Positions 6,130 to 51,543 of a DNA stretch of 64,000 bases are shown here, piece by piece. The notes beneath the pieces were generated by a model. The model saw only the letters and a list, made by a program, of their open reading frames with translations, searched no databases and was not told where the DNA came from. The translations under genes were made by a program, and so were the position numbers. Position 1 is the stretch's first letter. Each line of letters opens with the position of its first letter. The DNA is from Minisyncoccia bacterium (GTDB lineage Bacteria > Patescibacteriota > Minisyncoccia > Phycocordibacterales > Phycocordibacteraceae): NCBI GenBank assembly GCA_038228545.1, contig JBBRPE010000003.1, forward strand, positions 442 to 64,441, given 5' to 3'.

Positions 6130-7960
<1,831 letters not shown>

Positions 7961-7964
7961 ATCT

Positions 7965-8864
7965 TTATGTAAGTGCCCCGCTCACAATCTCTGACACTTC
8001 CTGAGTAATGGCTGCCTGACGCACCTTGTTGAATTTGCGCGTCAGGTCATGAGCCACTTCCTTGGATTTATCAGATGCATTCTTCATCGCGACCATGCGT
8101 GCGGAATGTTCCGACGCCTTGGACTCGAGAAGCATGTGATAGAGCGATACGGCGACGAGGCGCGGCACCAAAATGCCGAGCACCTCATCACCAGACGGCT
8201 CCACCTCATACGCTGCAGGGGCTTCAAGCGTCGCCGAATCCGACCACTTTCCCTTGGCAGGCACGATACCTTCCACGATTTCCGCGAGCGCAGGGAGCGA
8301 AAGCGGTAGGAGTTGGCGAGTCGTTGGCACCTGCTCGAAGGTTGACTTGAAACTGCTGTAAACGGTCACTACTTTGTCATAGTCCCCGCGAAGGAATCCC
8401 TCGGAAAGCTCTTTCGAGATTTCCTCCATAATTTCAATTGAAACGTCGTCACTCTTATTTTCGTATGATTTTGCAATTGAGTAATGACGATTATTGAAGT
8501 ACTCCAAACCTTTACGTCCGTATGCAAACAACGTGACATCTTTCGCGTCTCTTCCCTCGAGCGCCGCGATGCCGGCCTTGATTACGCCCGAGTTCAGACC
8601 GCCCGCAAGTCCTTTATCGCTTGTGATGACCACAAGCGCGAGCTTGTTTCCGGTACGCACACTAGCTAGCGGATGGCGCTTCACGTGTTCGGTACCTGAA
8701 AGGCGAGTGAGCACGGCAACTGCAGCACGAGCATACGCGCGACCGGCAAATGCCGAGTTCTGCGTCTTACGCATCTTCACGGCAGACACAGCCTCCATGG
8801 CGCGTGTGACTTTATTCATGCGCTTGGTAGCCAAAATCTTCAGTTTGATGTCTTTGAGTGCCAT
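7965..8864 (-). CDS. atpG: F1 ATP synthase gamma subunit
   Basis: MALKDIKLKILATKRMNKVTRAMEAVSAVKMRK ... a C-terminal conserved helix ...ITQEVSEIVSGA. Confidence 0.95.
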   Translation of the reverse strand: MALKDIKLKILATKRMNKVTRAMEAVSAVKMRKTQNSAFAGRAYARAAVAVLTRLSGTEHVKRHPLASVRTGNKLALVVITSDKGLAGGLNSGVIKAGIAALEGRDAKDVTLFAYGRKGLEYFNNRHYSIAKSYENKSDDVSIEIMEEISKELSEGFLRGDYDKVVTVYSSFKSTFEQVPTTRQLLPLSLPALAEIVEGIVPAKGKWSDSATLEAPAAYEVEPSGDEVLGILVPRLVAVSLYHMLLESKASEHSARMVAMKNASDKSKEVAHDLTRKFNKVRQAAITQEVSEIVSGALT

Positions 8865-17031: not shown

Positions 17032-17580
17032 TCAGGACGGATAGAAAATGCCGATGAAAGATAGGACTATTAATGCTAGCCCAACGAGCATTAATACTAT
17101 ATCCCACACAAAGAATTTCTTCTGCGGAACGTACGAAGAATCGATGTGTTTGTTGTATCGATTGCATATGCTCTGCATTTTTACAATAGAAACTACAGAG
17201 AGAAAACTTATAAGCCAGAGGAGGTTTGCAATTCCTTTCGTTGCCGGCGTCGTGCTTTGCATTCGGGCTGAGATACTGCCGATGAAAGTTAGGGCAATCC
17301 ACAGACCCGACCATACATCCACATATGACTTTGGACTTTGAGTGAGTGCGTCTGTCTTTTCGGCAATAGTTTTAAACAGTGCTGATACATAAAAATAAGC
17401 GAAAAAAGCACGCCAGAAAGGCTTAATTTCTAGATTGTCCATTTCGGCGACAATCTTCCAATTCCGGTACTGCCAGTACAATTCGTAAAAGCCAAGCGTT
17501 AATATTCCCAGAACAATTATTTTAGTATTGGATACAGAAAAAAATTCTTGCTTCTTAGCTTGCGAGCTGGATACTTCCAT
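17032..17580 (-). CDS. Hypothetical membrane protein (DUF4234-like)
   Basis: 182 aa with 4 TM helices, YELYWQYRNW motif. Confidence 0.55.
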   Translation of the reverse strand: MEVSSSQAKKQEFFSVSNTKIIVLGILTLGFYELYWQYRNWKIVAEMDNLEIKPFWRAFFAYFYVSALFKTIAEKTDALTQSPKSYVDVWSGLWIALTFIGSISARMQSTTPATKGIANLLWLISFLSVVSIVKMQSICNRYNKHIDSSYVPQKKFFVWDIVLMLVGLALIVLSFIGIFYPS

Positions 17581-18008: not shown

Positions 18009-18088
18009 TCAACGAGTTTCTTCGAATCCTGACGCAAGCTCCGCTTGCTTACGGTCCACGACAAAAGCCCCTTGCGGGGCTTTATGTG
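18009..18088. repeat. Palindromic tRNA-Ala-derived unit B (second tandem copy, fused to the functional tRNA-Ala gene)
   Basis: The plus-sense fragment ttcgaatcctg[acgcaagctccgcttgct]tacggtccacg carries an inserted 6-bp hairpin. It is followed by the gcccc-ttgc-ggggc hairpin and then the genuine tRNA-Ala 3' end in the opposite orientation. Same architecture as unit A. Confidence 0.7.
18061..18082 (-). terminator. Rho-independent terminator of tRNA-Ala
   Basis: On the minus strand: GCCCC-GCAA-GGGGC UUUUGU, directly 3' of the tRNA. Confidence 0.7.
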
Positions 18089-18161
18089 TGGACCGTACAG
18101 GATTCGAACCTGCGACATCTTCATTGCAAATGAAGCGCTCTACCAACTGAGCTAACGGCCC
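18089..18161 (-). tRNA. tRNA-Ala (anticodon UGC)
   Basis: Minus-strand sequence GGGCCGUUAGCUCAGUUGGUAGAGCGCUUCAUUUGCAAUGAAGAUGUCGCAGGUUCGAAUCCUGUACGGUCCA. Full cloverleaf, G3:U70 identity pair, A73, T-loop UUCGAAU. CCA is not encoded. Confidence 0.93.
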
Positions 18162-29505: not shown

Positions 29506-29530
29506 GGTCGCCCCTTGGGGCGACCTTTCC
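29506..29530. terminator. Bidirectional terminator hairpin
   Basis: ggtcgccc-cttg-gggcgacc followed by TTTCC. It sits between the convergent small ORF (+) and tgt (-). Confidence 0.65.
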
Positions 29531-30741
29531 TAGTAGTACTTTTCTACAAAGTCTTTTCGATACTGCTCAAAAGTTCCTGCATGAATCGCCTCACGTGCAC
29601 CGTCCACGAGTTTAATAATGAAGCCGAGATTGTGCATTGAGCAGAGTATGGAGCCCAACATCTCGCCCGCACGCAGTTGTGAAGAAATATACGCACGGGA
29701 AAATCCTTCCGTTCCGGCGACAATAGTCTCCGGGTCGAGCGGACCGTAGTCGTTTTTAAATTTCTCACCCTTGAGGTGCAGAATACCGTGTGTCGTATAT
29801 ATGGAGCCATGACGCCCGATGCGCGTTGCTGCGACACAATCAAAGAGATCCATGCCTTCCGCTATACCGGTTAGGATATCGCCCGGTTCTCCAATGCCGA
29901 GGAAGTGGCGCGGCTTTCCTTCCGGAAGTTCCGGGATAGCGGCCTGCAATGCCCCGTCCATGTCCTCTTTACTAAAGGAACCGCCGATACCAAAGCCATC
30001 GAAGTCCATGCTCGCAATTTCCTTTGCACTTTCCTTGCGCAAATCCGCGTACCGTCCTCCTTGGACGATTCCGAAAATCGCCTGCTTCTGATTAGCGTCA
30101 AGATTTTGGCGATGGGCTTTCAGTGAACGCTCTGCCCATTTGTGTGTACGACGCATGGCTTCCGCTTGGTATTCATACGGCTCCGTCGGACTGGTGCATT
30201 CATCAAACGCGAAGAACATATCGGCTCCGAGTGCATGCTGAATCTCGACCGAGCGCTCCGGTGTAAACCGATGCAGAGAGCCATCGAGATGTGAGGTGAA
30301 TGTCACACCTTCTTCGTCAATGACCGCAAGCTGTCCGTGCTGACTCGCAACGTCTTCGTCGTAAACGGAGACTACCTGGTCGTTCGCATTCTCCTCACCC
30401 TTCGCAATCTTCGTAATCGTCTTGCCGAAGGCAGCACCCAAAGAGAATACTTGAAACCCGCCCGAGTCAGTCATGGTCGGACCTTTCCACCCCATGAACG
30501 CTCCGAGTCCACCGGCGTCTTGTATGATTTTTTCTCCTGGTTGCAGATAGAGATGATACGTATTCGCAAGCACTACCTGAGCACCCATTTTTTCGAGTGC
30601 ACTCGGTAACACGCCCTTTACACCAGCCTTCGTTCCGACCGGCACAAAGGCTGGTGTTTGCACTACTCCATGAAGCGTTGTGAGGGTGGCGGCCCGCGCG
30701 CGACCGTCACGTGCCGTGATATCGAAGGATAAAGACTTCAT
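29530..30741 (-). CDS. tgt: Queuine tRNA-ribosyltransferase
   Basis: VQTPAFVPVGTKAGVKG, the LANTYHL motif, SGGFQVFSL, and a zinc site (CxCxxC...H) region, 403 aa. Confidence 0.95.
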   Translation of the reverse strand: MKSLSFDITARDGRARAATLTTLHGVVQTPAFVPVGTKAGVKGVLPSALEKMGAQVVLANTYHLYLQPGEKIIQDAGGLGAFMGWKGPTMTDSGGFQVFSLGAAFGKTITKIAKGEENANDQVVSVYDEDVASQHGQLAVIDEEGVTFTSHLDGSLHRFTPERSVEIQHALGADMFFAFDECTSPTEPYEYQAEAMRRTHKWAERSLKAHRQNLDANQKQAIFGIVQGGRYADLRKESAKEIASMDFDGFGIGGSFSKEDMDGALQAAIPELPEGKPRHFLGIGEPGDILTGIAEGMDLFDCVAATRIGRHGSIYTTHGILHLKGEKFKNDYGPLDPETIVAGTEGFSRAYISSQLRAGEMLGSILCSMHNLGFIIKLVDGAREAIHAGTFEQYRKDFVEKYY

Positions 30742-30803
30742 ATCTACCTAAAGTAGCGGTCTCCGGTGTATTGAGCAACCAAATACGGCTTTGTACCAGG
30801 GTA

Positions 30804-30832
30804 TTGACACATTCACAAACGTAGTGTATATA
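30804..30832 (+). promoter_or_regulatory. Consensus-like sigma70 promoter for the high-GC gene
   Basis: TTGACA (30804-30809), a 17-nt spacer, then TATATA (30827-30832). Downstream, an AGGAGGG RBS lies 9 nt before the ATG at 30906. Confidence 0.5.
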
Positions 30833-30905
30833 CTTATATTAGGTACTTGTTCTTCACAGTCTAGTTGGAGAACCAGGCCATTACAGCAACAGGAGGGCAT
30901 CTCAG

Positions 30906-31739
30906 ATGTCTAATCTCAACAGGGCGTTGAGGCTTGCCCTCAGCGCCACCGTCGCCATGTCAATTCTGGCGAACGCGGCTAACGCCCAAAGCGTTCCGCA
31001 GGTTCCGAGTGGAGGAGCGGCATCCGTCGTTTCCCAGTCGACTTCGCAAGAAGCGGCTTCGGCCGCCTACGTCACGCTTGCGGAACGGACGGCACCTTGC
31101 CGTTCGAACGCCACCTACTGCATCGAGCCGCGTCCGGCCCGACCGTCGACCATCGACGGCACGAGCCCGACCGTCACTCCGACGGAATGGATGCGGGATT
31201 ATCCCCGTTCGGGAATGGCCGGCTACAACCGGATAGCGAGGGCGAACCAGGCCCTCTGCTCCACTGCTGACGAATACGTCGCGGGTCTCAGGACCCTCGA
31301 CCAGCTCTTCGTCAGCGCCGGAAACGAGTACCAGTTAATTCAGGACGTCTATAACGACCTTCCTGATGCGATTCGCCGCAACGCCCGAGTGATGATTGCC
31401 ACGCAAGCGGTGCAAGCCGGTCTGCTGTGCCTTCTCTCGTTCGGCACGTACTGCATCGCGGTGGTTGTCGGCGCCGCGGGCAACATCATGACTACGCACA
31501 CTAACGAGCGTATCCAGCTGACTTCGGTCCAGCTGGCGCTCGCGAACATCGTGGTCACGAAGCTCAACATCTGGTCGAATCGTCTGACGATTCGACTGGA
31601 CAACCTGTGGCTGAAGGACTGGCTTCCGAACTGCGAGGGGCTGGGGTATCACATCAACTTCACTCTCCCGCCGCTCGGCCCGCCGCCGTCGGTTCCGGAA
31701 GGCTTCGGCCAACCGGCGCTCCCTGCCGGTCACCACTAG
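30906..31739 (+). CDS. Secreted/membrane-anchored hypothetical protein, anomalously GC-rich (~62% vs ~50% elsewhere)
   Basis: Signal peptide MSNLNRALRLALSATVAMSILANAANAQS, an internal hydrophobic segment, a Pro-rich C-terminus. Third codon positions are strongly G/C-biased, unlike neighbouring genes. Confidence 0.7.
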   Translation: MSNLNRALRLALSATVAMSILANAANAQSVPQVPSGGAASVVSQSTSQEAASAAYVTLAERTAPCRSNATYCIEPRPARPSTIDGTSPTVTPTEWMRDYPRSGMAGYNRIARANQALCSTADEYVAGLRTLDQLFVSAGNEYQLIQDVYNDLPDAIRRNARVMIATQAVQAGLLCLLSFGTYCIAVVVGAAGNIMTTHTNERIQLTSVQLALANIVVTKLNIWSNRLTIRLDNLWLKDWLPNCEGLGYHINFTLPPLGPPPSVPEGFGQPALPAGHH

Positions 31740-31774
31740 ACAAGCAACCTTCTGACCCCTGGGTCACAAGGCAA

Positions 31775-31805
31775 CGCCGCACCCCTCAAAAGGTGCGGCG
31801 TTTCT
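31775..31805 (+). terminator. Rho-independent terminator
   Basis: cgccgcacc-cctcaaaa-ggtgcggcg followed by TTTCT. Confidence 0.75.
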
Positions 31806-31825
31806 ACATGCCTATGTGTGAATGA

Positions 31826-32404
31826 TTACTGACCTATTTTAACAAGCTCAACTTCAAAGATAAGTGTTGCGTTCGGTGGGATTACTCCTCCTGCGCCCTG
31901 CGCCCCATAGCCAAAGTCTGGTGGGATAACGAGCTTGCGCTTACCGCCAACTTTCATACCAACCAAGCCCTGATCCCAGCCCTTGATGACCTGGCCTGCG
32001 CCAAGCTGAAACTGGAATGCTTGTCCGTGCTTTGCAGACGCGTCGAAGACCGTGCCATCAGGAAGCATGCCGACGTAATTCATGGTGAGAACGTCGCCTG
32101 CCTTAGCTGTTGCACCTGTGCCGACCACTTCATCGCTCACGGTAAGTGTTGTCGGAAGCGGTCCTTGGATAGGACCACCATGAGCTGTGGTAGGTGCTTG
32201 AGCGGAGCTGCCGGATTGTACGGGATGACCGGATATATCGAGAGAATCGGATGATGATGCCATAGTATTTTGTGAAGCTGCGTCTGTTGTCGTGGCCGTC
32301 GTAGCGTGCCCAAATGGTCGCAAAACGCTGGGCCCCAAAAACAGGAAGGCAACCGCGACGACCACGGCGAGAGTGACGGCGACGGCTGTTGCAGTGATGT
32401 TCAT
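31826..32404 (-). CDS. FKBP-type peptidyl-prolyl cis-trans isomerase, membrane-anchored/secreted
   Basis: An N-terminal TM/signal segment and a C-terminal FKBP domain ([31 protein letters not shown]...[10 protein letters not shown]). Confidence 0.85.
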
Positions 32405-32716: not shown

Positions 32717-35700
32717 TTAGCTGACTACACTACTAAAAGTACCCGGCGACGGAATGTGATTAAGTTGTGTTGCTGGGTCGGTAAGGCCGTTGAGCAAGCT
32801 CGAGTGACCCTGACCATCACCCGTGACGGTCGCTGTGTAACGGAATATTCCCTGCTCTGCCAGGTCGGGTCGTTGTGCAAACAGTGTCTCTGGATTTCCT
32901 TCCACACTCACGCGCACCGGAGTACTCTGACTCGCTGCAAATCGTTGCGCGAACGAATGCAGTTCGTCGTACGACTTACCTCCCCATGCATGCAAGGTGC
33001 CGTACGTATCAGAGTAGATATGCGGAACGCGCGAATCAACGGTAATGGAATTTGCATTTGTAAATCGCGCCGGATACTCGCTCATGAGGTTGTGGCGCAA
33101 GTCGAACGACGATGGATGTACTACAGACGAATCCGTGCCCGGCGCAGGAGAAGTTTCTGGGGGCGCCGTGGATGCGGAATCAGGAGTAGCACTCGGTACT
33201 GCGTGTAAACGCTCATCAAGTGTCATATATCCACTTCCACTAGAATCTGCAGGTGCGTCTGGTGACTGTTCGAGAGTTGGTGGCGACTCGATACCAGTAG
33301 TTGCGGACTCCGCTGCTGGAGTCTCGGAGACCACTGCTGACGTAGGTGACTCGTGTGTGGGGTGGGGTCCGTTATGATGTGCACCGGAAGCGTGCGTAGC
33401 GCGCAGTTCAACATGCGGCTGGTCATGGGTAACTACGGCACCCTGCGGTGATTCTTGCATCACCGTATAGGGGTCACCATGCGCCGGAGTGAAGGTGAGT
33501 GTATGGCCGTCAGGTGAAAGCGTAAGGGTATCGCCCGGGTGGACGAGTGCACTTGTGACCGTATGCGAAGCTGGATCGAAATGTTCAAATCCGGTGGCGC
33601 GCGCGAACTGGTCTACATTATGAAACTCAAACATCTTCTGTACGAGTGGTGGTGGTGTGCTACCGGCTGGATATTGATGATGGAGCTGACGCAACATATC
33701 GGCATACATATGCGTCGCACCCTCCCCGGCTTTAATTTCGTGATGAAAACCTCCCACCTGTGATTCGGGTGCACCCGGTGTGGCTGATTGAGCTTCAGGG
33801 GAAACAGAGTGTCCGGCAGAATCTTGCGAATGCACGTCGTGTACATTTGTATCACTTGGCGCAGAAGCATCAGGATGTCCCGGTACTTCTTGTGCATGGT
33901 GCGTACCTGCCGGCGCAATTGTAGGAGTTTCCGAATGTGTAGCGGAGTGCGCAGTTGTCGAATGAAGCTCAGGACCTCCATGTGTACTGGCGGCATGAGT
34001 CGTTACCGAGTGCTCAAGCGACGTGACGCCGTGCGGTATGTGCGAACCGACTGCACTAAAACCTTCCGCTGAGAGGGCACCTGCTCCTACGCCTGCAGCA
34101 ATACCTCCAACGGCGCTTCCGGTAGAGCGGAGTCTCGCATTGCGCTCAAGGGTTGCTGCAGCACCCTGACGACTCTTTGAGAGAGTTTCGAAGTAATTGG
34201 CATCGCGCAAATCGCCTACTTCACGTTTTTTAAGCGTTGCTTCCGCGTTCTGCGAAGATTTTTTTTGTGCAGTTTCGATACCTTTTCCGGTGAGCCACCC
34301 GCCGATACCCGCTGCACTCCACCACTTTGCATTACTCGAGAGTTTCGCGTGAGCATCTGTATCGCCCCGTTCCAGAGCCCCCTGTGCCCGTAGTCGCTGC
34401 ACGGCGCCAATAGAAGCGACGCCAAGTGCCGAACCGGAAAGGAGAGCAGCCGCACCTATGCCGCCCGTAAGCGTACCGAATGCAAATCCAGCAACACCGA
34501 GTGCGCTTCCCAAAATAATTTTTTTCTTGGGATCCATGCCGTTATAAGCCTTAAACAATTTGTCGGCCAAGTGTCGGTCTCGTAGAGCGAGTCCTTCCAT
34601 ACGTGCACGTTGCTCTGATTCCTCTGCGCCAAACACCGCTGCCTTTACTACATACATACGCTGATAACGTTCGCGCATAACCTCACCGTACTGCTTCCCC
34701 TTATTAGGACCTGCCTGAATTACCTCGTCCAGGTGACGGTCCTGTCGTGCAGCTGAGCCCCGACCCTCACGTCGTTCCTGTATGGAATCGAGAAGTGTCC
34801 GAGCGTGCATGACTCGCGTTGCGACCCACTGCCTGCGTGCAAGCTGTACCTCATCCGGGAGTTTATCTTGATTTCCTTTTTGTAATCCAAGACGTTCGCC
34901 GAGTGCACCTAAAAAGCCACGGTTCTGTTGGTGAGCTTTAAGCAAATCGAAATATGTTTCTTTATATGCTTTTTCCGTATCGATAGTCGGGTCATAGAAG
35001 TCCTTTTTAAAGGTTTCGTTGGCTGTTTGCTTAGTACTCCGACGCTCTGCACGGGCTGCAGCTTCCTGTACACTCACCGTCGGTCCTTCAGGAAGCGTAT
35101 TCGAAGCGATAACAGGTGAAGGATAGTGCGGTTCACCTGTATAGACCTCACTAGCGACAACACCGACATCTGACTGCGGAGAGTATTTATCGAGAAGTGC
35201 CTGCAACTTTGCTTTGTATTCTGCTTTTGAATTCGGGCTCGGTTCGTTACTTTCAAAGTCCCTCTTCAAAGTAAGTAAGTCCTCTCTCAGTGCGTTATCG
35301 GCAACCGGTTCTTCGTGTTCTGATTGTGCGTTTTGTTCCACCACGGCTGCACCTCCAGCCTCTGGAGAGACTGCATCAGGAGCGGTTTTCTGCTCGTCAC
35401 TTCGTAAGTCAGGCAGTGCAATAACGTCTGGAGCAGTATCTACTGAAGTAGGTGCTTCCTCGTCGAATGGCACATCTGTACTTCCATCTTCCGGAGTACT
35501 ACGGTCTGACGACTCTGGTCGCGGTTTAGTTCGCTTCTGTACTTCACGTTTTGCAATAACAGTCTGTCTCGCGAGTCTGTCTTCATGTTCCTGTGTTTGC
35601 GCTGCCTTTTCGCGCTCAAGTGCACCTTGTAACTTTCCGGCTTGATCAAGGAGCTGATCACGCTCTTCGCGCTTCATACTTCGTGCAGCTTTTCTTTCCA

Positions 35701-36079
35701 CCTCAGGGAGGGTCGCTTCTGTTTCCCGTATAATTTTTCTGTTTCGTGTCAGCTTTTGAACTGCGTCTGGCAATTTTTCACGTATATTTTTCTCCACTCC
35801 ATCCACTATCGCTTGTTCACTCGCTTCAACACGAGCACGATTGTCAGCAATTGCTTTTGCTTCGTCCTCACGCTGTTTGCGTCTATAGAAAGCAACTCTA
35901 TCCGCGCGACCAATTTTATTCGCTACTTCAGGAATCGTATCAATTAACTGCTCAGCAGACATCTCGGTCGATGTGTTTGTAGCCTTACGCACCTGCTCTG
36001 CGCGTATAGCCTTCGTTAGTTCCTTGGTCTTGGCTCCAAGTTCTTTACTTCGTGGCGTTCGTTCCATTCCTCGAGACAT
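32717..36079 (-). CDS. Giant (1120 aa) bitopic protein: charged coiled-coil N-half, central Gly/Ala-rich TM pair, His/Pro/Thr/Ser-rich low-complexity C-half
   Basis: A single uninterrupted ORF. Central hydrophobic segment ILGSALGVAGFAFGTLTGGIGAAALLSGSALGVASIGAV. The C-terminal region is rich in HxxH/TH/SP repeats (HGVTSLEHSVTTHAASTHGGPELHSTTAHSATHSETPT...). It starts 11 nt after the VirB4-like stop. Confidence 0.8.
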   Translation of the reverse strand: MSRGMERTPRSKELGAKTKELTKAIRAEQVRKATNTSTEMSAEQLIDTIPEVANKIGRADRVAFYRRKQREDEAKAIADNRARVEASEQAIVDGVEKNIREKLPDAVQKLTRNRKIIRETEATLPEVERKAARSMKREERDQLLDQAGKLQGALEREKAAQTQEHEDRLARQTVIAKREVQKRTKPRPESSDRSTPEDGSTDVPFDEEAPTSVDTAPDVIALPDLRSDEQKTAPDAVSPEAGGAAVVEQNAQSEHEEPVADNALREDLLTLKRDFESNEPSPNSKAEYKAKLQALLDKYSPQSDVGVVASEVYTGEPHYPSPVIASNTLPEGPTVSVQEAAARAERRSTKQTANETFKKDFYDPTIDTEKAYKETYFDLLKAHQQNRGFLGALGERLGLQKGNQDKLPDEVQLARRQWVATRVMHARTLLDSIQERREGRGSAARQDRHLDEVIQAGPNKGKQYGEVMRERYQRMYVVKAAVFGAEESEQRARMEGLALRDRHLADKLFKAYNGMDPKKKIILGSALGVAGFAFGTLTGGIGAAALLSGSALGVASIGAVQRLRAQGALERGDTDAHAKLSSNAKWWSAAGIGGWLTGKGIETAQKKSSQNAEATLKKREVGDLRDANYFETLSKSRQGAAATLERNARLRSTGSAVGGIAAGVGAGALSAEGFSAVGSHIPHGVTSLEHSVTTHAASTHGGPELHSTTAHSATHSETPTIAPAGTHHAQEVPGHPDASAPSDTNVHDVHSQDSAGHSVSPEAQSATPGAPESQVGGFHHEIKAGEGATHMYADMLRQLHHQYPAGSTPPPLVQKMFEFHNVDQFARATGFEHFDPASHTVTSALVHPGDTLTLSPDGHTLTFTPAHGDPYTVMQESPQGAVVTHDQPHVELRATHASGAHHNGPHPTHESPTSAVVSETPAAESATTGIESPPTLEQSPDAPADSSGSGYMTLDERLHAVPSATPDSASTAPPETSPAPGTDSSVVHPSSFDLRHNLMSEYPARFTNANSITVDSRVPHIYSDTYGTLHAWGGKSYDELHSFAQRFAASQSTPVRVSVEGNPETLFAQRPDLAEQGIFRYTATVTGDGQGHSSLLNGLTDPATQLNHIPSPGTFSSVVS

Positions 36080-36089
36080 AGCAAGTGTA

Positions 36090-38819
36090 TTACGAAAGAT
36101 AACGGGCCTTAATCATTGATTCAACTGTAGCACGGTCACGACCGTAGGTAAGGTAGGAAAGCTCACGCAAGTCATCTATTTGCGCAGGATTCCCTGCAAC
36201 GGGAGGAAGTGTCTGAATGTTAAACGGCTTTTGCGGAACACCTCCTGCAAGAATTTTTACGTATGCGTTGTAATTCTCTATCGACGTAAAATCGCCGGCT
36301 TTAAAGACCGGAGCAAACTGCTTCTCAAAGAATTCGCCGTCTTCCTGACCAACACGGAATATCGACATGGAGCCAACGTTTCCGAATACGGCGTTTCGTG
36401 TCTTTTCATCCACCTGTGAGAGGAATTGATGCGCGATAGTCAGTGAAAGTTTGTATTTACGTGCCTCGGAAAGAATGCTCGGAATAGAATCCGTCGTGAT
36501 GTTCTGGAATTCATCTATATACAGGTAGAACGGCGCAAAATCTCCACGTGGATTGTCCGCGCGTGAAAGTGCCGCCATAAAGAGCTTGCCCACAAGGATA
36601 AGGCCGAGCAGGTTTGCATTGCGCTCGCCGAGGCGACCCTTTGAGAGATTTACCAGCAATATTTTCTTATTGTCTATGACATCACGGAACTGGAAGGATG
36701 ATTGCTGTTGGCCAATGATAGGGCGCATGAAATCGTTCGCCGTGAAGTCGTCGAACTTGTTCGTAATGTACGGAACGATGTTGGCGAGCGAGGCTTCCCC
36801 TTCCGCTTGTGTCGCTATTTCATTCCAGAACTGGTTCACAATCGGATTCATCGATTTCGAAAGCTTGTAGTCTCGGAATGGCTTATTTGAAAGCACACGA
36901 CCAATGTCCATCAGCGTTGAGCCGGATGCCGGGTCTTCCATGACGAGGAGGGTGGCATTGCGGAAGTACTGCTCAAATGCCGGCCCCATACTTTCCGGTA
37001 CATCACCGTACAATCTTCGGAAAATCGCGAGTAACTCATTCACGATAAACGTTTTTTGTTCAGGACGTGACGCATCGTACTCGAGCAGATTGAGTCCGAA
37101 TGGACGGGAGATTTCAGCGGGGTCGAAATAGATGACATCCTCAAAGCGCTCCGGCGGTATGTAGGAAAGCACATCGAGAATGTCGTTTCCGTGCGGGTCA
37201 ATGAAACAAACGCCGTTGCCAGCAGCAATATCCTGGGCAATAAGCGTCTTCATAAACGAGGTTTTACCGGTACCCGTTTGTCCTATGACGTAAAGATGAC
37301 GTAGACGGTCCTCAGGAGTGAGACGTATGCTGGTCTGTACTCCACGATAGTCGTTTGCACCAAGCACAATGCCGTCTTGCGGTAGCGCAGTCGGTGCCGG
37401 TGCGGAGGTAAAGCGCGACTGCGCAAGGTGCGGACTTGATTCGATTCCTTTAGGTGGGAAGTGGTACAGCGTCGTGAGCTCACGAATCGAAAGAGGCATA
37501 TCGCTTGCATCAGAAAAGAGACGGAAGGTAAAGTCACGAAAGAGTTTCTTCGCATCGCCTCGTTCTACATTCTTAAATTCAATGCGATTGCCAATAGTGT
37601 TTTCGAATTGATTAAAAGCGGCCGCTAACTCTGTTCTAATGGAATGTGCTTTTACCGCATCGGTGGAAGACACGACAATACGGATATTCGTTTCGACGAT
37701 AGGAGCCAGTATCTTCTTCTCCACCTGTTCAATCGCTACTTTGTCGGCGTGGGCTGGGTCAAGCGCTTTCTTTTGCGGACCTAAGAGTCCTATGGCTTCA
37801 CGGGCAAAATCGCCCACGAACGTTTCTGGAAGATTGAAAGCACGGGACCTATGTTCACCCTTACGGAGTTCTGCGAGTACTCGACGATAATGATCGGTAT
37901 AGTGGCTACCTCTCGGACGAATGAGTATCTGAAGCGATGCTCCTTCACCTTCCGCGTCAATCTTTGCGAACGCATTTAGAATTGAATTGAGCGGGTCATA
38001 GTCAAAGTCACCGTAGTCCTTGAGCGGCAGCATTGCTTTATCTTTTAGAGTCGCATACGCGCCAATCGAATTTCCGTCTTCGGTAAACACGTTATAGTCG
38101 TTGGGTTGGCCTTTGATGCGTGCATCAGGGAATATAGCGAGAAGCTGTTTCTCGAACAGGTCCTTCTTGCCGTTGGGCACGGACGCATAAAATTGAAGCG
38201 TTGGGGAATTTACCGGCACCGCGAGCTCGAGCGTGTAGTAGGGTGGCTCTTTAGCATCGGCTTGCTGTATGGACTGCATGCCGGAATAAAACTGCTCCAT
38301 TGCGGAAACCAATTCCTTGAGGGTTTTCGTCCGCGCATTGTTTCCTCCATCGGCTTCCGGTTCAGGAAGTGCTATTTCATAGAGCGTCATATGGAGTGCC
38401 TTCCATGTAGGCTGGCCTTCCGCAAGCCCGGTAGCCGTCATTCCGGAGATAATGTACTGGACGAGGAAACGATGGAAATCATCCTCAAGATGAGGATTAT
38501 TGAGCTTTTCAAGAACGCTGAATGCGTTCTTGATTCCCTTCTCCTCCATAATCCCGCGAAGCTCTTTAATAGTTTCGTCGTTTTGTTCCGGAGAGAGCGA
38601 GTCTGCGAGTTCGAGAAGTGCAGCGGGAGTAGCGCGATATTCGGGTGCGAGCACCGTATCAGGTGAAGTGCGATGTACCAGAATGCGCTCATGCGCTACT
38701 TCTTCGCGTGGTGCCGTCTCGCGCATCGAAGCAAGCTCAGCTTCTTTACGTGCAACTTCTGCGCGCAAATACGCAAGTTCATCCTCCGGACTAGCCAGTG
38801 GTCGTAGTGGGCCCTCCAT
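36090..38819 (-). CDS. VirB4/TrbE/TraE-family type IV secretion ATPase (AAA_10-like)
   Basis: ~910 aa. The non-ATPase N-terminal half has no TM helices. The C-terminal ATPase carries Walker A GQTGTGKTSF, Walker B FYLYIDEFQN, and TIAHQFLSQ...FGNVGSMSIFRVG motifs, the architecture typical of VirB4 rather than VirD4. Start placed at the MEGPLRP Met (38819), downstream of the terminator hairpin. Confidence 0.72.
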   Translation of the reverse strand: MEGPLRPLASPEDELAYLRAEVARKEAELASMRETAPREEVAHERILVHRTSPDTVLAPEYRATPAALLELADSLSPEQNDETIKELRGIMEEKGIKNAFSVLEKLNNPHLEDDFHRFLVQYIISGMTATGLAEGQPTWKALHMTLYEIALPEPEADGGNNARTKTLKELVSAMEQFYSGMQSIQQADAKEPPYYTLELAVPVNSPTLQFYASVPNGKKDLFEKQLLAIFPDARIKGQPNDYNVFTEDGNSIGAYATLKDKAMLPLKDYGDFDYDPLNSILNAFAKIDAEGEGASLQILIRPRGSHYTDHYRRVLAELRKGEHRSRAFNLPETFVGDFAREAIGLLGPQKKALDPAHADKVAIEQVEKKILAPIVETNIRIVVSSTDAVKAHSIRTELAAAFNQFENTIGNRIEFKNVERGDAKKLFRDFTFRLFSDASDMPLSIRELTTLYHFPPKGIESSPHLAQSRFTSAPAPTALPQDGIVLGANDYRGVQTSIRLTPEDRLRHLYVIGQTGTGKTSFMKTLIAQDIAAGNGVCFIDPHGNDILDVLSYIPPERFEDVIYFDPAEISRPFGLNLLEYDASRPEQKTFIVNELLAIFRRLYGDVPESMGPAFEQYFRNATLLVMEDPASGSTLMDIGRVLSNKPFRDYKLSKSMNPIVNQFWNEIATQAEGEASLANIVPYITNKFDDFTANDFMRPIIGQQQSSFQFRDVIDNKKILLVNLSKGRLGERNANLLGLILVGKLFMAALSRADNPRGDFAPFYLYIDEFQNITTDSIPSILSEARKYKLSLTIAHQFLSQVDEKTRNAVFGNVGSMSIFRVGQEDGEFFEKQFAPVFKAGDFTSIENYNAYVKILAGGVPQKPFNIQTLPPVAGNPAQIDDLRELSYLTYGRDRATVESMIKARYLS

Positions 38820-38868
38820 ACGTTTGAGTATACGATACGAAATATCACGTAAACAGATACGTATGGAT

Positions 38869-38899
38869 AAAAAGAGACGCACATGATGCGTCTCTTTTT
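38869..38899. terminator. Bidirectional rho-independent terminator
   Basis: AAAAA-gagacgca-catga-tgcgtctc-TTTTT, symmetric A/T runs flanking a perfect 8-bp stem. Confidence 0.8.
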
Positions 38900-49241: not shown

Positions 49242-49301
49242 GTACGAAGAGTGTATCAGAAATACGTTGATGTCTGAGACGTGATGAAATGGAGACGGGC
49301 G

Positions 49302-49835
49302 CTAATCAACAACATCGTACCCGAGCTTTCGCGCAACATCCTCTTCCTCAAGAACTTCTCCGGTAAGCGGGTCGTGGCACATATATTCTTTATCCATTGC
49401 AAAATAGGTCGGTGTCTTGCTGTGTTCACCACCTGCGGCCTTCCAGCATGTACTGAGCCATGCATAGAGCATCTCGGACTGTCGAGTACCGAAATCCATT
49501 GCTTCCTTATCTGTGAACTCAACACCGTCAAATGTTTTGGTCTCGTATTCGTCTAGTTCGGAAATAAAGCTTGTTTCGGAACTACTTTCCACATCGTAGT
49601 CAGCGCCCAACTTTTTCTTTCCATCCTCGTCTGTAACTTTGAAGCTATTGTAAACGAGACAGAAATTTTGATCCGCGAATAACTCAAGTGTGCGATATAT
49701 TTCACCTTCTTTCGGCTCCATCTCCACATACGTGCGCATTTTCTCTACGGCCGCTCCCTCAGCACGTTCCAATATCCCAGTAACTTCACCGATAATCTTG
49801 TCCACGCGTTCAATTCCGTTTGGTATAGCTTCCAT
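49302..49835 (-). CDS. Hypothetical acidic protein
   Basis: 177 aa, soluble and acidic. It lies just outside the last att-like repeat of the tRNA-Gln array. Confidence 0.5.
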   Translation of the reverse strand: MEAIPNGIERVDKIIGEVTGILERAEGAAVEKMRTYVEMEPKEGEIYRTLELFADQNFCLVYNSFKVTDEDGKKKLGADYDVESSSETSFISELDEYETKTFDGVEFTDKEAMDFGTRQSEMLYAWLSTCWKAAGGEHSKTPTYFAMDKEYMCHDPLTGEVLEEEDVARKLGYDVVD

Positions 49836-49886
49836 ATGTATAGATTATGCCATGAAATGGATATGCGTCAGAATCTAGATACATCT

Positions 49887-49915
49887 GGCAGACTGGGACG
49901 ATGTTGGAACCTATG
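49887..49915 (-). repeat. att-like repeat 3: degenerate copy of the tRNA-Gln 3' end
   Basis: Minus-strand sequence TAGGTTCCAACATCGTCCCAGTCTGCCAG compared with tRNA-Gln CTAGGTTCGATCCCTAGTCTCCCAGCA. It shares TAGGTTC and CCC(T)AGTCT(C)CCAG. Located directly after the stop of ORF 49911..50534. Confidence 0.6.
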
Positions 49916-50534
49916 CTACTCCCATGTATCCATCCTTGAGTTCAGATTGAAATTTCTCTTCTTCAAAAGTTTGAGGATCGATACTCCAACTTGATGCAAC
50001 TTTTAATACATCTGACTCATTGGGGAAATCCTCCCAATTCTCCATTGGGGTGGAAAGATAAACAAGGTCTTTTTCAATAGAAGTTGGTTCGCCAACGTTT
50101 CGATAGACCTCACCGCTTTCACCTAAGTAATAAAAACTTCTTTTAAGTTCCCCATTTATTGCACGCGCCCATATGTTCAGTTCAACAACCCGATGATTCG
50201 CAAAGAATTGAGCCTCCCCAAATTCCTTACTTAACACGCATATCTTATCTTCAATATCGGTAAGATCTTCTCTTAAAGAGAGAGCGAGCGCCTGGCCCAC
50301 CACAAATACCCAACCTTCTACTTGAGGAGTAATAAAGATTTCTTTTCCAGCTCCGTTAGCGTATGTAGCTGAAACACCTTCACGCCAGGGTGTCTCTCGA
50401 AGCTTTCGTATACCCAGAATAGCGTCAATTTTTTCATAGTCCGCTGGTGCCTTAATGGCATACCATGCAGTTTTATATGACCAAGCAGCGAACAACGAAT
50501 CAGGTTGAGTAGGTTTCTTAGCAAAGAATTTCAT
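49911..50534 (-). CDS. Hypothetical protein (cassette gene C, AT-rich)
   Basis: 207 aa, AT-rich codon usage unlike the flanking genes, immunity-protein-like small soluble protein. No family assigned. Confidence 0.55.
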   Translation of the reverse strand: MKFFAKKPTQPDSLFAAWSYKTAWYAIKAPADYEKIDAILGIRKLRETPWREGVSATYANGAGKEIFITPQVEGWVFVVGQALALSLREDLTDIEDKICVLSKEFGEAQFFANHRVVELNIWARAINGELKRSFYYLGESGEVYRNVGEPTSIEKDLVYLSTPMENWEDFPNESDVLKVASSWSIDPQTFEEEKFQSELKDGYMGVA

Positions 50535-50560
50535 ATATTTGAATGTATGACATACAGATT

Positions 50561-50590
50561 TTAGTGCTGGCAGTCTGGAACTACGTTGTA
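50561..50590 (-). repeat. att-like repeat 2: degenerate copy of the tRNA-Gln 3' end
   Basis: Minus-strand AGGTTACAACGTAGTTCCAGACTGCCAGCA ends in CCAGCA like the tRNA-Gln 3' terminus (…UCCCAGCA). Located directly after the stop of ORF 50596..51072. Confidence 0.6.
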
Positions 50591-50595
50591 ACCTT

Positions 50596-51072
50596 CTAAT
50601 TAATCAACAGCGAGGTGTAAGTCTCCCACTTTGGGTCACACTTCATCATAAACTGTAGTTGATGCTCTTCAAATTTATCTTGAATGGTTTTGACTTTCGA
50701 CTCAAAATATTCCGGCTTCCACTCTGGCGCGTAGAAAACAAATTCTCTCATACCACCAGTAGTGATAGACATAACATAGAGGAGTCCGTCTTTTGAAAGA
50801 ATCGCGTCAAGCTCATCTTCAATCAAGTTTAGTTCTTGTAACTCACTGCCTTGGGGTAAACCAGCTTCAGTAGGATTTTTGAGCGGAATTACAACACCAA
50901 TCTGAAATGGAAATCTTTCAGAGCCAACCATATTTGAAACTTGTCGTGCGCGTATGAATATTGCTTTGCCTGCGTATTCACCTCGTAACACCTTCCATTC
51001 ATCAGGCATTGGAGTTGGGTTTGAATCATTCTTCTTTGAGAAGTTGAGCATAATGTCTAAATTATCATACAC
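50596..51072 (-). CDS. Hypothetical acidic protein (cassette gene B, AT-rich)
   Basis: 158 aa. Faint resemblance to small acidic immunity/regulator-type proteins, unverified. Confidence 0.55.
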   Translation of the reverse strand: MYDNLDIMLNFSKKNDSNPTPMPDEWKVLRGEYAGKAIFIRARQVSNMVGSERFPFQIGVVIPLKNPTEAGLPQGSELQELNLIEDELDAILSKDGLLYVMSITTGGMREFVFYAPEWKPEYFESKVKTIQDKFEEHQLQFMMKCDPKWETYTSLLIN

Positions 51073-51084
51073 AAATCGAGCTGA

Positions 51085-51112
51085 CTGTTTGGGTCGATGT
51101 TGGAACTTTTTT
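51085..51112 (-). repeat. att-like repeat 1: degenerate copy of the tRNA-Gln 3' end
   Basis: Minus-strand GTTCCAACATCGACCCAAACAGTCAGC, the same motif family as repeats 2 and 3. Located directly after the stop of ORF 51115..51357. Confidence 0.5.
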
Positions 51113-51114
51113 AC

Positions 51115-51357
51115 TTACCACCATGATGTAAAAATTGCACTCAAAAAATTCTCAGCCACAAGCTTCCTGAAGCGAGAACTAACTACCAATCCGAATACGC
51201 CTATTACGACAATGACTCCAGAGACCATAACAATTGGCTGCGCCCCTAGATTTCTATAGAACAAATATGAAAAGGCACTCAGCACAAAAGCTGCAATGGA
51301 GATCAAGAACACAATTACAGGGATCGCTAACAGAATCTCTGAAATGAAGTTTTTCAT
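51115..51357 (-). CDS. Small 2-TM membrane protein (cassette gene A)
   Basis: 80 aa with two hydrophobic helices. It starts 19 nt after the truncated tRNA-Gln copy. Confidence 0.45.
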   Translation of the reverse strand: MKNFISEILLAIPVIVFLISIAAFVLSAFSYLFYRNLGAQPIVMVSGVIVVIGVFGLVVSSRFRKLVAENFLSAIFTSWW

Positions 51358-51375
51358 GTTTTTAGTATATATCAG

Positions 51376-51430
51376 TTGAGAGACTAGGGATCGAACCTAT
51401 ATTCACGGCTTCAAAGACCGCTGTCCTACT
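51376..51430 (-). pseudogene. 5'-truncated duplicate of tRNA-Gln (D-arm to 3' end, no acceptor 5' strand)
   Basis: Minus strand GUAGGACAGCGGUCUUUGAAGCCGUGAAUAUAGGUUCGAUCCCUAGUCUCUCAA is ~90% identical to positions 18-73 of the intact tRNA-Gln. The upstream sequence cannot pair with the 3' strand, so it is not a functional tRNA. Confidence 0.65.
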
Positions 51431-51470: not shown

Positions 51471-51543
51471 TGCTGGGAGACTAGGGATCGAACCTAGATT
51501 CACGGCTTCAAAGGCCGCTGTCCTACCATTAGACGATCTCCCA
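51471..51543 (-). tRNA. tRNA-Gln (anticodon UUG)
   Basis: Minus strand UGGGAGAUCGUCUAAUGGUAGGACAGCGGCCUUUGAAGCCGUGAAUCUAGGUUCGAUCCCUAGUCUCCCAG(CA). Full cloverleaf with the U1:A72 and G73 Gln identity elements and anticodon loop CUUUGAA. Confidence 0.9.

Follow-up and report, generated by a model that had tools for sequence, protein, structure and literature searches.

The tgt-FKBP slot and its gene

The stretch of DNA analysed here (the window) is 64,000 nucleotides of contig JBBRPE010000003.1 from a Minisyncoccia bacterium (GenBank assembly GCA_038228545.1). At 30906-31739 on its + strand, it carries a gene of 277 amino acids (aa) plus stop codon. The gene diverges from tgt on its left (29530-30741, - strand; tRNA-guanine transglycosylase, Pfam PF01702, E = 2.9e-124) and converges with the gene of a membrane-anchored FKBP-type peptidyl-prolyl isomerase on its right (31826-32404, - strand; PF00254, E = 3.2e-36). 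We call this place the tgt-FKBP slot and its coding part the cargo; the window protein is a member of the cargo family named family A below. We consider it probable that the slot holds a resident, highly expressed, GC-rich gene for an envelope protein that is swapped between relatives and whose GC content at third codon positions (GC3) is maintained, and that the gene is not foreign.

A preliminary account made from the letters of the window (the sequence-only reading) had pointed to an open reading frame (ORF) that is richer in GC and GC3 than its neighbours, and this was correct. GC is 0.622 and GC3 0.759 (GC1 0.601, GC2 0.507), compared with 0.503±0.034 and 0.524±0.059 in the 63 other window ORFs of at least 100 aa, which corresponds to z of ~3.5 and ~4.0, respectively. 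Among 65 window ORFs the gene ranks first in GC3, the runner-up having 0.685, and the GC of tgt and the FKBP gene is 0.526 and 0.547. In 100-bp windows across 30900-31799, GC is 0.54-0.68 whereas the flanking spacers are AT-richer (0.41 and 0.43); the elevation is thus coextensive with the coding part.

By all sequence criteria the ORF is a true protein-coding gene, because GC3 > GC1 > GC2, homologs are found down to E = 1e-70, and dN/dS (the ratio of nonsynonymous to synonymous substitution rates) is 0.12-0.48 among the less diverged ortholog pairs. In genomes of lower GC, a GC-rich island often turns out to be an RNA gene, and several relatives have long antisense ORFs across the slot gene, so the region could be imagined as a GC-rich structured RNA or the ORF as an artefact of high GC. 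This explanation has a negligible chance of being right in view of the codon-position pattern, the dN/dS values and the protein-level conservation of family A, which tolerates in-frame indels down to 15% identity. A scan of 30400-32000 with Rfam covariance models gave no match at E ≤ 1, and over the whole window Rfam found three tRNAs and nothing else. The antisense ORFs (184-304 aa; L001 9923-10831 and L006 7950-8825, both on the - strand, and others in L026, L030, L034, L039 and L041) exceed the real slot gene in length in some relatives, the longest in the window being 133 aa. They are expected because TTA, CTA and TCA codons are rare in the slot gene; being unconserved, they were rejected as genes and are regarded as an artefact of high GC3. 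Gene callers could mis-annotate slot loci owing to them.

The strand of the slot gene is always opposite to that of tgt and FKBP. The - strand carries 59 of the 65 window ORFs, and cumulative GC skew along the + strand declines steadily. From this strand bias and skew, the - strand is probably the leading strand, and the slot gene would then run head-on to replication.

The slot gene reads as a monocistronic unit with its own TTGACA promoter, strong Shine-Dalgarno sequence and GC-hairpin terminator. All of these had been listed in the sequence-only reading, which described a self-contained unit, and all of them hold. The -35 hexamer is a perfect TTGACA (30804-30809, + strand) and the -10 hexamer is TATATA (30827-30832) after a 17-nt spacer, giving a predicted promoter with 10 of 12 positions of the sigma-70 consensus. 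One promoter-like match per 3.5 kb is the chance level for the window promoter taken alone, and its significance comes from its conservation upstream of the equivalent gene in relatives. At 43 of 44 slot loci there is a perfect TTGACA followed by a good -10 after 16-18 nt, as against only 6 of 217 control intergenic regions from the same loci. The -10 variants in relatives are TATAAT, TATACT, TATAAA and TATATA, with a spacer of 16-18 nt. The consensus promoter scanner demands T as the last -10 base and reported the overlapping TTCACA-17-TATATT instead.

The leader of slot genes is 55-100 nt long. In the window, per-sequence folding predicts a hairpin at 30846-30876, in which GTTCTTC (30849-30855) pairs with GGAGAAC (30867-30873). 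A pyrimidine motif, (R)GYTCTTTCC with the core YTCTTY, is present in 20 of 49 leaders examined, and 19 of these 20 have it as the 5' arm of their minimum-energy hairpin (mean z -1.96); a CAUCAAC motif often lies downstream of it. The 3' arms are purine-rich and Shine-Dalgarno-like and vary from locus to locus. No common structure emerged from RNAalifold with the MAFFT-aligned leaders, because the 3' arms misalign. The hairpin may serve as an mRNA stabiliser or as a regulatory site. Further downstream, the Shine-Dalgarno sequence AGGAGGG (30891-30897) lies 8 nt upstream of the ATG, and a GGAGG-type sequence precedes the start in all related leaders listed. The intrinsic terminator (31773-31805), convergent with the end of the FKBP gene, has an 11-bp GC stem (31773-31783 with 31792-31802), an 8-nt loop and a UUUCU tail, and folds at -32.3 kcal/mol (z = -5.9). 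A strict terminator scanner made no call here because the T-run is short. The U-run is longer in relatives; the equivalent terminators of L001 and L005 have z of -5.3 and -4.3, and a GC hairpin with a T-run follows the slot gene in most related loci listed. By analogy with lpp, ompA, aprE and cryIIIA, this layout would suit a stable, monocistronic mRNA that is made at a high rate.

The claim of an exported product with a signal peptide, an internal hydrophobic segment and a Pro-rich C-terminus was likewise borne out, by inspection and Kyte-Doolittle analysis. The signal peptide comprises residues 1-27 (30906-30986), MSNLNRALRLALSATVAMSILANAANA followed by QS, and is of the Sec type with an AxA motif. 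Its regions, MSNLNRALR, LALSATVAMSILA and NAANA before the Q, agree by inspection and regular expression with type I cleavage, predicted between ANA and QS. A small-x-small motif plus Q occurs at this site in all 39 aligned family A members. These 39 sequences have in common the signal peptide, a near-invariant C118/C243 pair and the block GALCxLSxGxYCxAAxxGxxGN. The core of this block, LCxLSxGxYC, is the most conserved part of the family and lies in a hydrophobic Gly/Ala-rich segment (residues 162-195, QAVQAGLLCLLSFGTYCIAVVVGAAGNIM; 31389-31490) that reaches 2.2 on the Kyte-Doolittle scale, which is transmembrane-grade, and holds the conserved C175 and C183. The protein ends in a Pro-rich stretch (LPPLGPPPSVPEGFGQPALPAGHH) with the motif LPPLPxxPxxPxxFG. 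This motif and the adjacent FKBP isomerase gene hint at a foldase-client relation, which is speculation.

AlphaFold reached a pLDDT of 74.6 with 39 sequences and 57 with five sequences. The confident core is composed of three long helices (103-150, 154-176 and 200-245), with a disordered linker after the signal peptide. A low-confidence hydrophobic tip (176-199) between long helices holds the conserved CX7C. Structure comparison with the PDB and BFVD gave no significant match, and a sequence profile search of the PDB gave none under E = 0.03 and only coiled-coil noise. The window protein belongs to no Pfam, NCBIfam or PHROG family; Pfam gave chance-level matches only for the 39 family A members and no family for nine other slot proteins. 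The most that can be said from the model is that the window protein is predicted to be exported, disulfide-bonded and helical, with a membrane-active tip. We infer that Sec exports the slot protein, that cleavage follows ANA and that disulfide bonds form, with the hydrophobic tip at the membrane and the long helices outside. The slot product may be a major envelope or cell-surface protein.

Distribution and replacement of the cargo

Word-indexed searching of 5.8 billion proteins yielded only four relatives of the window protein, with 44-55% identity. Among 1.84 billion representatives, a full profile search brought up 38 clusters, and nothing beyond the family A clusters of this clade. Members of family A have 228-317 aa, except for two fragments. 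Every member with contig context lies in a Patescibacteria genome in the arrangement tgt(-), gene(+), FKBP(-); P0041 has this context at only 15% identity to the window protein. The wider gene order is UvrA, response regulator, histidine kinase, UvrB, small ORFs, tgt(-), slot gene(+), FKBP(-), DUF5663, a protein of 780-1120 aa and a DUF8128/DUF87 ATPase. When species-representative genomes were searched with this neighbouring ATPase, 80 loci were obtained at 63-83% identity over the best-matching segment, in Patescibacteria metagenome-assembled genomes titled Parcubacteria, Paceibacterota, Kaiserbacteria and, in some cases, Saccharibacteria; this places the window in the same clade. A family-pattern scan gave no match in species-representative genomes and two loci in metagenomes, and the contig index has no entry for the exact window protein. 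Literature searches returned no description of the tgt-FKBP slot locus or its families.

Both tgt and FKBP are present in 62 species-level loci, and an opposite-strand slot ORF of 113-298 aa lies between them in 47. Three of the 47 are doubtful, and the 44 credible genes were used in the paired tests described below. The remaining 15 loci were scored as having no slot gene (L024, L048, L050, L053, L054, L057, L058, L065, L070, L072, L074, L076, L084, L086 and L087), with tgt and FKBP adjacent or overlapping in 14 of them. The gap between the two genes is 11-216 bp in 13 slot-less genomes and negative, with overlapping calls, in L070 and L074. L090, where 812 bp separate the two genes and contain no ORF on the opposite strand, is likewise unscored as a gene holder. 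The slot-less loci are mostly, not solely, in the branch with records titled Kaiserbacteria. The slot is found in a clade of Patescibacteria, Parcubacteria/Paceibacteria and 'Kaiserbacteria'-like.

These distributions bear on the horizontal acquisition that the sequence-only reading had thought likely, with a high-GC host as a speculative source. In full, this explanation is recent acquisition from a high-GC donor such as the host of an episymbiont, the excess being foreign composition that has not yet ameliorated. A GC and GC3 about 4 sd above the window, the self-contained unit and the lack of a Pfam or NCBIfam match are all what such a transfer would leave behind. However, the two protein searches found no homolog outside the clade; the homologs are of the same lineage, occupy the same locus wherever context is available and are similarly GC-rich, an outcome that the sequence-only reading had itself named as contrary to acquisition. 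Neither do the surroundings look like a point of entry: neither the ORF list nor Pfam shows mobility genes at 28-35 kb, blastn of the unit against the 64-kb window found no flanking repeats, no paralog and no silent cassette, and the window tRNA genes lie only at 18.1, 51.5 and 63.7 kb.

The 44 credible slot proteins comprise family A (11 loci, in addition to metagenomic clusters), family B (29 loci) and four singletons. Family A proteins have a Sec signal peptide, whereas a lipoprotein signal was found in 26 of the 29 family B loci. Slot proteins are rich in Gly and Ala, and their conserved cysteine pairs surround a hydrophobic segment of membrane grade. No homology between families A and B was detected by hhalign and hmmsearch, and a shared origin is neither claimed nor excluded. 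On a neighbour-joining tree of ATPase and tgt, which carries no support values, the two families are interspersed and losses are scattered; L019 (A) and L020 (B), and L007 (A) and L042 (B), are tree neighbours of unlike family.

The clearest case is that of L018 and L027, which are sisters on this tree and have slot proteins that are only 22% identical. At the DNA level they agree at 79-91% across tgt and the promoter, at only 36-49% over precisely the coding stretch, and again at 77-88% once the terminator is reached and on into the FKBP side. L019 and L020 show similarly sharp cassette boundaries. Since it is unrecognisable between close relatives whose flanks are 80-90% identical, the cargo is replaced by recombination within the clade; the pattern is one of recombinational replacement between conserved flanks, not of gradual divergence. 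Homology between L018 and L027 stops directly 3' of the leader motif GAGTTCTTT (L018 ~17110-17200, L027 ~17150-17250; window counterpart 30845-30876). By this boundary, the 5' arm of the leader hairpin is a part of the conserved flank, and the loop and the complementary 3' arm move with the cassette. Replacement is seen in relatives, the nearest relatives of the window being too distant for sharp boundaries. Of the earlier idea of horizontal exchange, one part therefore survives, exchange among relatives by replacement between the flanks (L018/L027, L019/L020), and the other, delivery from a high-GC host, does not.

Within a family, the slot genes are under purifying selection, as the dN/dS values given above indicate. 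Between the window and L001, the proportion of nonsynonymous differences is 0.37 for the slot gene and has a median of 0.156 for the flanks, and by this measure the slot gene evolves faster than its neighbours. Diversifying pressure from host recognition or phage may drive the turnover of the cargo.

Origin and maintenance of the GC3 excess

High GC is a property of the cargo and not of a foreign donor. The 47 slot genes have a mean GC of 0.612 (sd 0.047) and a mean GC3 of 0.723 (sd 0.099), compared with 0.524 and 0.549 for their genomic background, in which GC3 ranges from 0.35 to 0.70. Gene GC is independent of genome GC (r = 0.09), and the slot gene has the highest GC3 of its 20-kb locus in 30 of the 47. 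In the extreme cases GC3 is 0.84 against a background of 0.42 (L023), 0.76 against 0.40 (L035) and 0.62 against 0.35 (L043).

The excess also does not decay. The L001 ortholog, 49% identical to the window protein, has a GC3 of 0.873 against 0.643±0.050 for called neighbours, so that both genes are ~23 points over background. Because synonymous divergence relative to the flanks is confounded by composition-limited saturation, it was replaced by a test of observed against expected same codons. At identical residues the window and L001 genes agree in codon at 50.8%, compared with 47.4% by chance given their own usages; the synonymous sites are saturated, and those of the flanking genes are saturated alike. 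Saturation with retained excess in both orthologs means that the GC3 excess is an equilibrium upheld by an ongoing force and no leftover of a transfer.

The excess is mainly one of C. Pooled over slot genes and background, respectively, third positions are 0.44 and 0.27 C, 0.30 and 0.27 G, 0.11 and 0.20 A, and 0.15 and 0.26 T. In paired comparisons over the 44 loci, two-fold pyrimidine-ending codons gain 0.216 in their C fraction (p = 3.5e-11) and four-fold boxes 0.206 in GC (p = 1.2e-10), whereas Lys/Glu/Gln codons gain only 0.031 in their G fraction (p = 0.29). In the window gene, C/(C+T) in pyrimidine-ending codons is 0.86, against 0.53 in the window. The pattern is common to family A and the lower-clade family B, and strand alone does not explain it. 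The high GC2 of slot genes is due to amino-acid choice, since GC-rich residues are preferred: Gly and Ala are high, Glu, Lys, Leu and Ile are low, GARP residues (Gly, Ala, Arg, Pro) are up by 6.8 points, and R/(R+K) is 0.65 in slot proteins and 0.54 in the background.

A blanket GC pressure, whether from foreign origin, mutational bias or biased gene conversion, would be expected to move Lys/Glu/Gln codons as well, and these are not shifted. With this, with the excess recurring in 47 species-level loci and with no amelioration, acquisition from a high-GC donor becomes very improbable.

The most likely main cause of the GC3 excess is selection on synonymous sites linked to expression. A C bias in two- and three-fold pyrimidine-ending codons is reported for highly expressed genes at any genome GC, and a U bias for the four-fold boxes of such genes (PMC7374057). 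In the proposed mechanism, selection on synonymous sites tied to heavy expression would be the main keeper of the excess, and GC-biased gene conversion at a recombination-prone slot may reinforce it. The main rival or co-factor would be this same gene conversion. It leaves the identity of the gene as proposed and attributes the excess mainly to heteroduplex repair at a recombination hot spot. Such a process fits the directly observed exchange of cassettes between the flanks, the interspersal of families on the tree and the decoupling of gene GC from genome GC, as well as the raised R/(R+K) and the enrichment of CGG and CTG, codons that the atp genes avoid. The same process should raise G in Lys/Glu/Gln codons, which hardly move, and the gain is mostly in C, with little in G. 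To our knowledge, an offset of 20-40 GC3 points also exceeds published bacterial cases. We therefore regard gene conversion as a doubtful candidate for the main cause.

Selection at the nucleic-acid level comes as a distant third. Here a GC-rich, C-skewed strand would be favoured since it forms fewer R-loops or replication conflicts, or since a long-lived mRNA avoids AU-rich nuclease sites. The orientation of the gene against nearly all neighbours and the declining skew of the + strand fit this explanation, as do the coding-strand GC skew of -0.05 to -0.06 in lower-clade slot genes, against +0.02 in the background, and the combination of a 5' hairpin and a strong terminator. A general avoidance of A/U would, however, shift Lys/Glu/Gln codons too, and same-strand genes elsewhere have normal GC3. 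We consider it improbable.

Several observations weigh against a resident, highly expressed envelope-protein gene kept GC-rich by synonymous selection. The four-fold boxes of slot genes shift to C and G, not to U as in highly expressed genes (PMC7374057). The codon adaptation index (CAI) against the atp operon, a check suggested in the sequence-only reading, places the window gene at rank 42 of 65, unlike the atp operon, and a log-odds score places it at rank 17 of 65. This test is weak, as the atp operon is the sole expression proxy in a window that holds no ribosomal-protein genes; simple translational adaptation is nevertheless unsupported by it. CGG, AGG and CTG are enriched in the window gene and avoided by the atp genes. 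Very high expression is itself deduced from the signals of the gene, and the fold of the window leader taken alone is non-significant (z -0.11 for 66 nt and -1.34 for 44 nt). Fold and family comparisons back no specific function. Towards L001 and L091 the window shows only a gradual contrast, with identities of 0.7-0.8 in the flanks and 0.3-0.6 in the cargo. Finally, 10 upper-branch family B loci, including Kaiserbacteria-titled ones, have a pooled third-position C of only 0.36 against 0.31, and GC3 z per locus of -0.6 to 1.6.

The only other recurrent GC3 outlier of these loci is a small membrane protein with a GC3 of 0.62-0.84 (L007 10081-10425, L015 8520-8852, L046 9581-9907), which has the Pfam domain Phage_holin_4_2 in L001 and L007.

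Known counterparts, significance and neighbouring genes

Monocistronic genes or leaders of abundant envelope proteins are known from E. coli lpp and ompA and from Bacillus aprE and cryIIIA-type leaders. The slot gene resembles this type in being a single gene with a near-consensus promoter, a strong Shine-Dalgarno sequence, a terminator and a leader hairpin. As with lpp and ompA, its product is small and exported, often a lipoprotein, and its codon usage stands apart from that of the genome at large. Neither sequence nor fold relates it to lpp or ompA, and in contrast to them the slot cargo is hypervariable and replaced between close relatives. The codon bias of the slot gene is unlike that of the atp operon.

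The kind of locus is already known. Variable surface loci between housekeeping flanks include Borrelia ospC, Neisseria porB, and capsule and O-antigen loci. They have in common with the slot the conserved flanks, the drop in identity over exactly the cargo, unrelated alleles or families interspersed on the tree, and the loss of the gene from some lineages. The slot differs in consisting of one small gene with a promoter and leader common to all alleles, in lying in Patescibacteria and in carrying new families. Capsule and O-antigen islands typically have lower GC than their genome, whereas the slot cargo is uniformly GC-rich. Borrelia vls is, like the slot, a fast-changing surface locus with GC above that of the genome that is kept across species. 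In contrast to vls, the slot gene has neither paralogs nor silent cassettes within the 64-kb window, for which a vls-like system was therefore rejected. Direct repeats are also absent from the borders of the slot, and its coding-strand skew is towards C and modest. What is new is the lineage, the protein families, the common leader and a GC3 decoupled from the genome.

At the protein level, the window model is similar to the alpha pore-forming toxins ClyA, AhlB and SmhB in its long antiparallel helices, its hydrophobic Gly/Ala-rich tip and its export. Foldseek comparison with AhlB and SmhB was at noise level (E = 1.8-3.1, probability 0.04-0.07), and the similarity is non-significant. Family B lipoproteins, with GxxxG-rich hydrophobic stretches, resemble glycine-zipper lipoproteins such as SlyB/Pcp and the Rickettsia 17-kDa antigen. 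The slot proteins match neither glycine-zipper nor toxin families in Pfam.

In a farther-reaching idea, these episymbiotic Patescibacteria would make their principal contact with the host through the slot protein, which would be abundant and exported and would have a disulfide-clamped hydrophobic tip that engages a membrane, perhaps that of the host, as an anchor or pore; an arms race with host or phage would exchange the cassettes, and a gene-specific force would clamp GC3. We think this rather unlikely. If it were true, the GC3 clamp would be a gene-specific directional force on a single bacterial gene, by biased conversion or R-loop selection. Patescibacteria are a large uncultured share of bacterial diversity, and their host attachment and feeding are mostly obscure. 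The slot is an easily located candidate surface determinant of host range or phage sensitivity and is usable as a strain-typing marker in metagenomes. It also calls for caution in genome scans, as a GC3 of +4 sd in a self-contained gene, a textbook sign of foreign DNA, is here a resident and maintained trait. Once explained, the GC3 clamp would offer a natural experiment on selection versus biased conversion, with one slot to compare in genomes spanning 44-60% GC.

Low-GC outliers are found elsewhere in the window. The stretch 49300-51400 has a low GC of 0.40-0.43, contains ORFs 49911-50534 and 50596-51072 with GC3 of 0.33 and 0.39, and adjoins tRNA-Gln (51472-51543); it is a more conventional foreign-island candidate than the slot gene. 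A second low-GC outlier is ORF 17032-17580 (182 aa, GC 0.406, GC3 0.44), which is located near tRNA-Ala (18088-18161). In the ATP synthase operon, ORF 7514-7960 (148 aa) is an extra member between the genes of the beta (6130-7503) and gamma (7965-8864) subunits, which were identified by eye and not by Pfam.

Beyond the FKBP gene, ORF 32717-36079 encodes a low-complexity protein of 1120 aa with no Pfam family (GC3 0.42) and adjoins the DUF5663 gene and the ATPase gene. Its counterpart has 779-885 aa in L006, L007 and L091 and is missing from L001. The ATPase (ORF 36090-38882, 930 aa), whose relatives carry DUF8128/DUF87, is 63-83% conserved over 80 species-level Patescibacteria genomes. It shows a faint TraG-D_C signal, a match to phrog_5156 (E = 1.5e-68), and weak terminase and FtsK-like matches. 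Judged from these matches, it may be a part of a DNA- or protein-translocation apparatus beside the slot.

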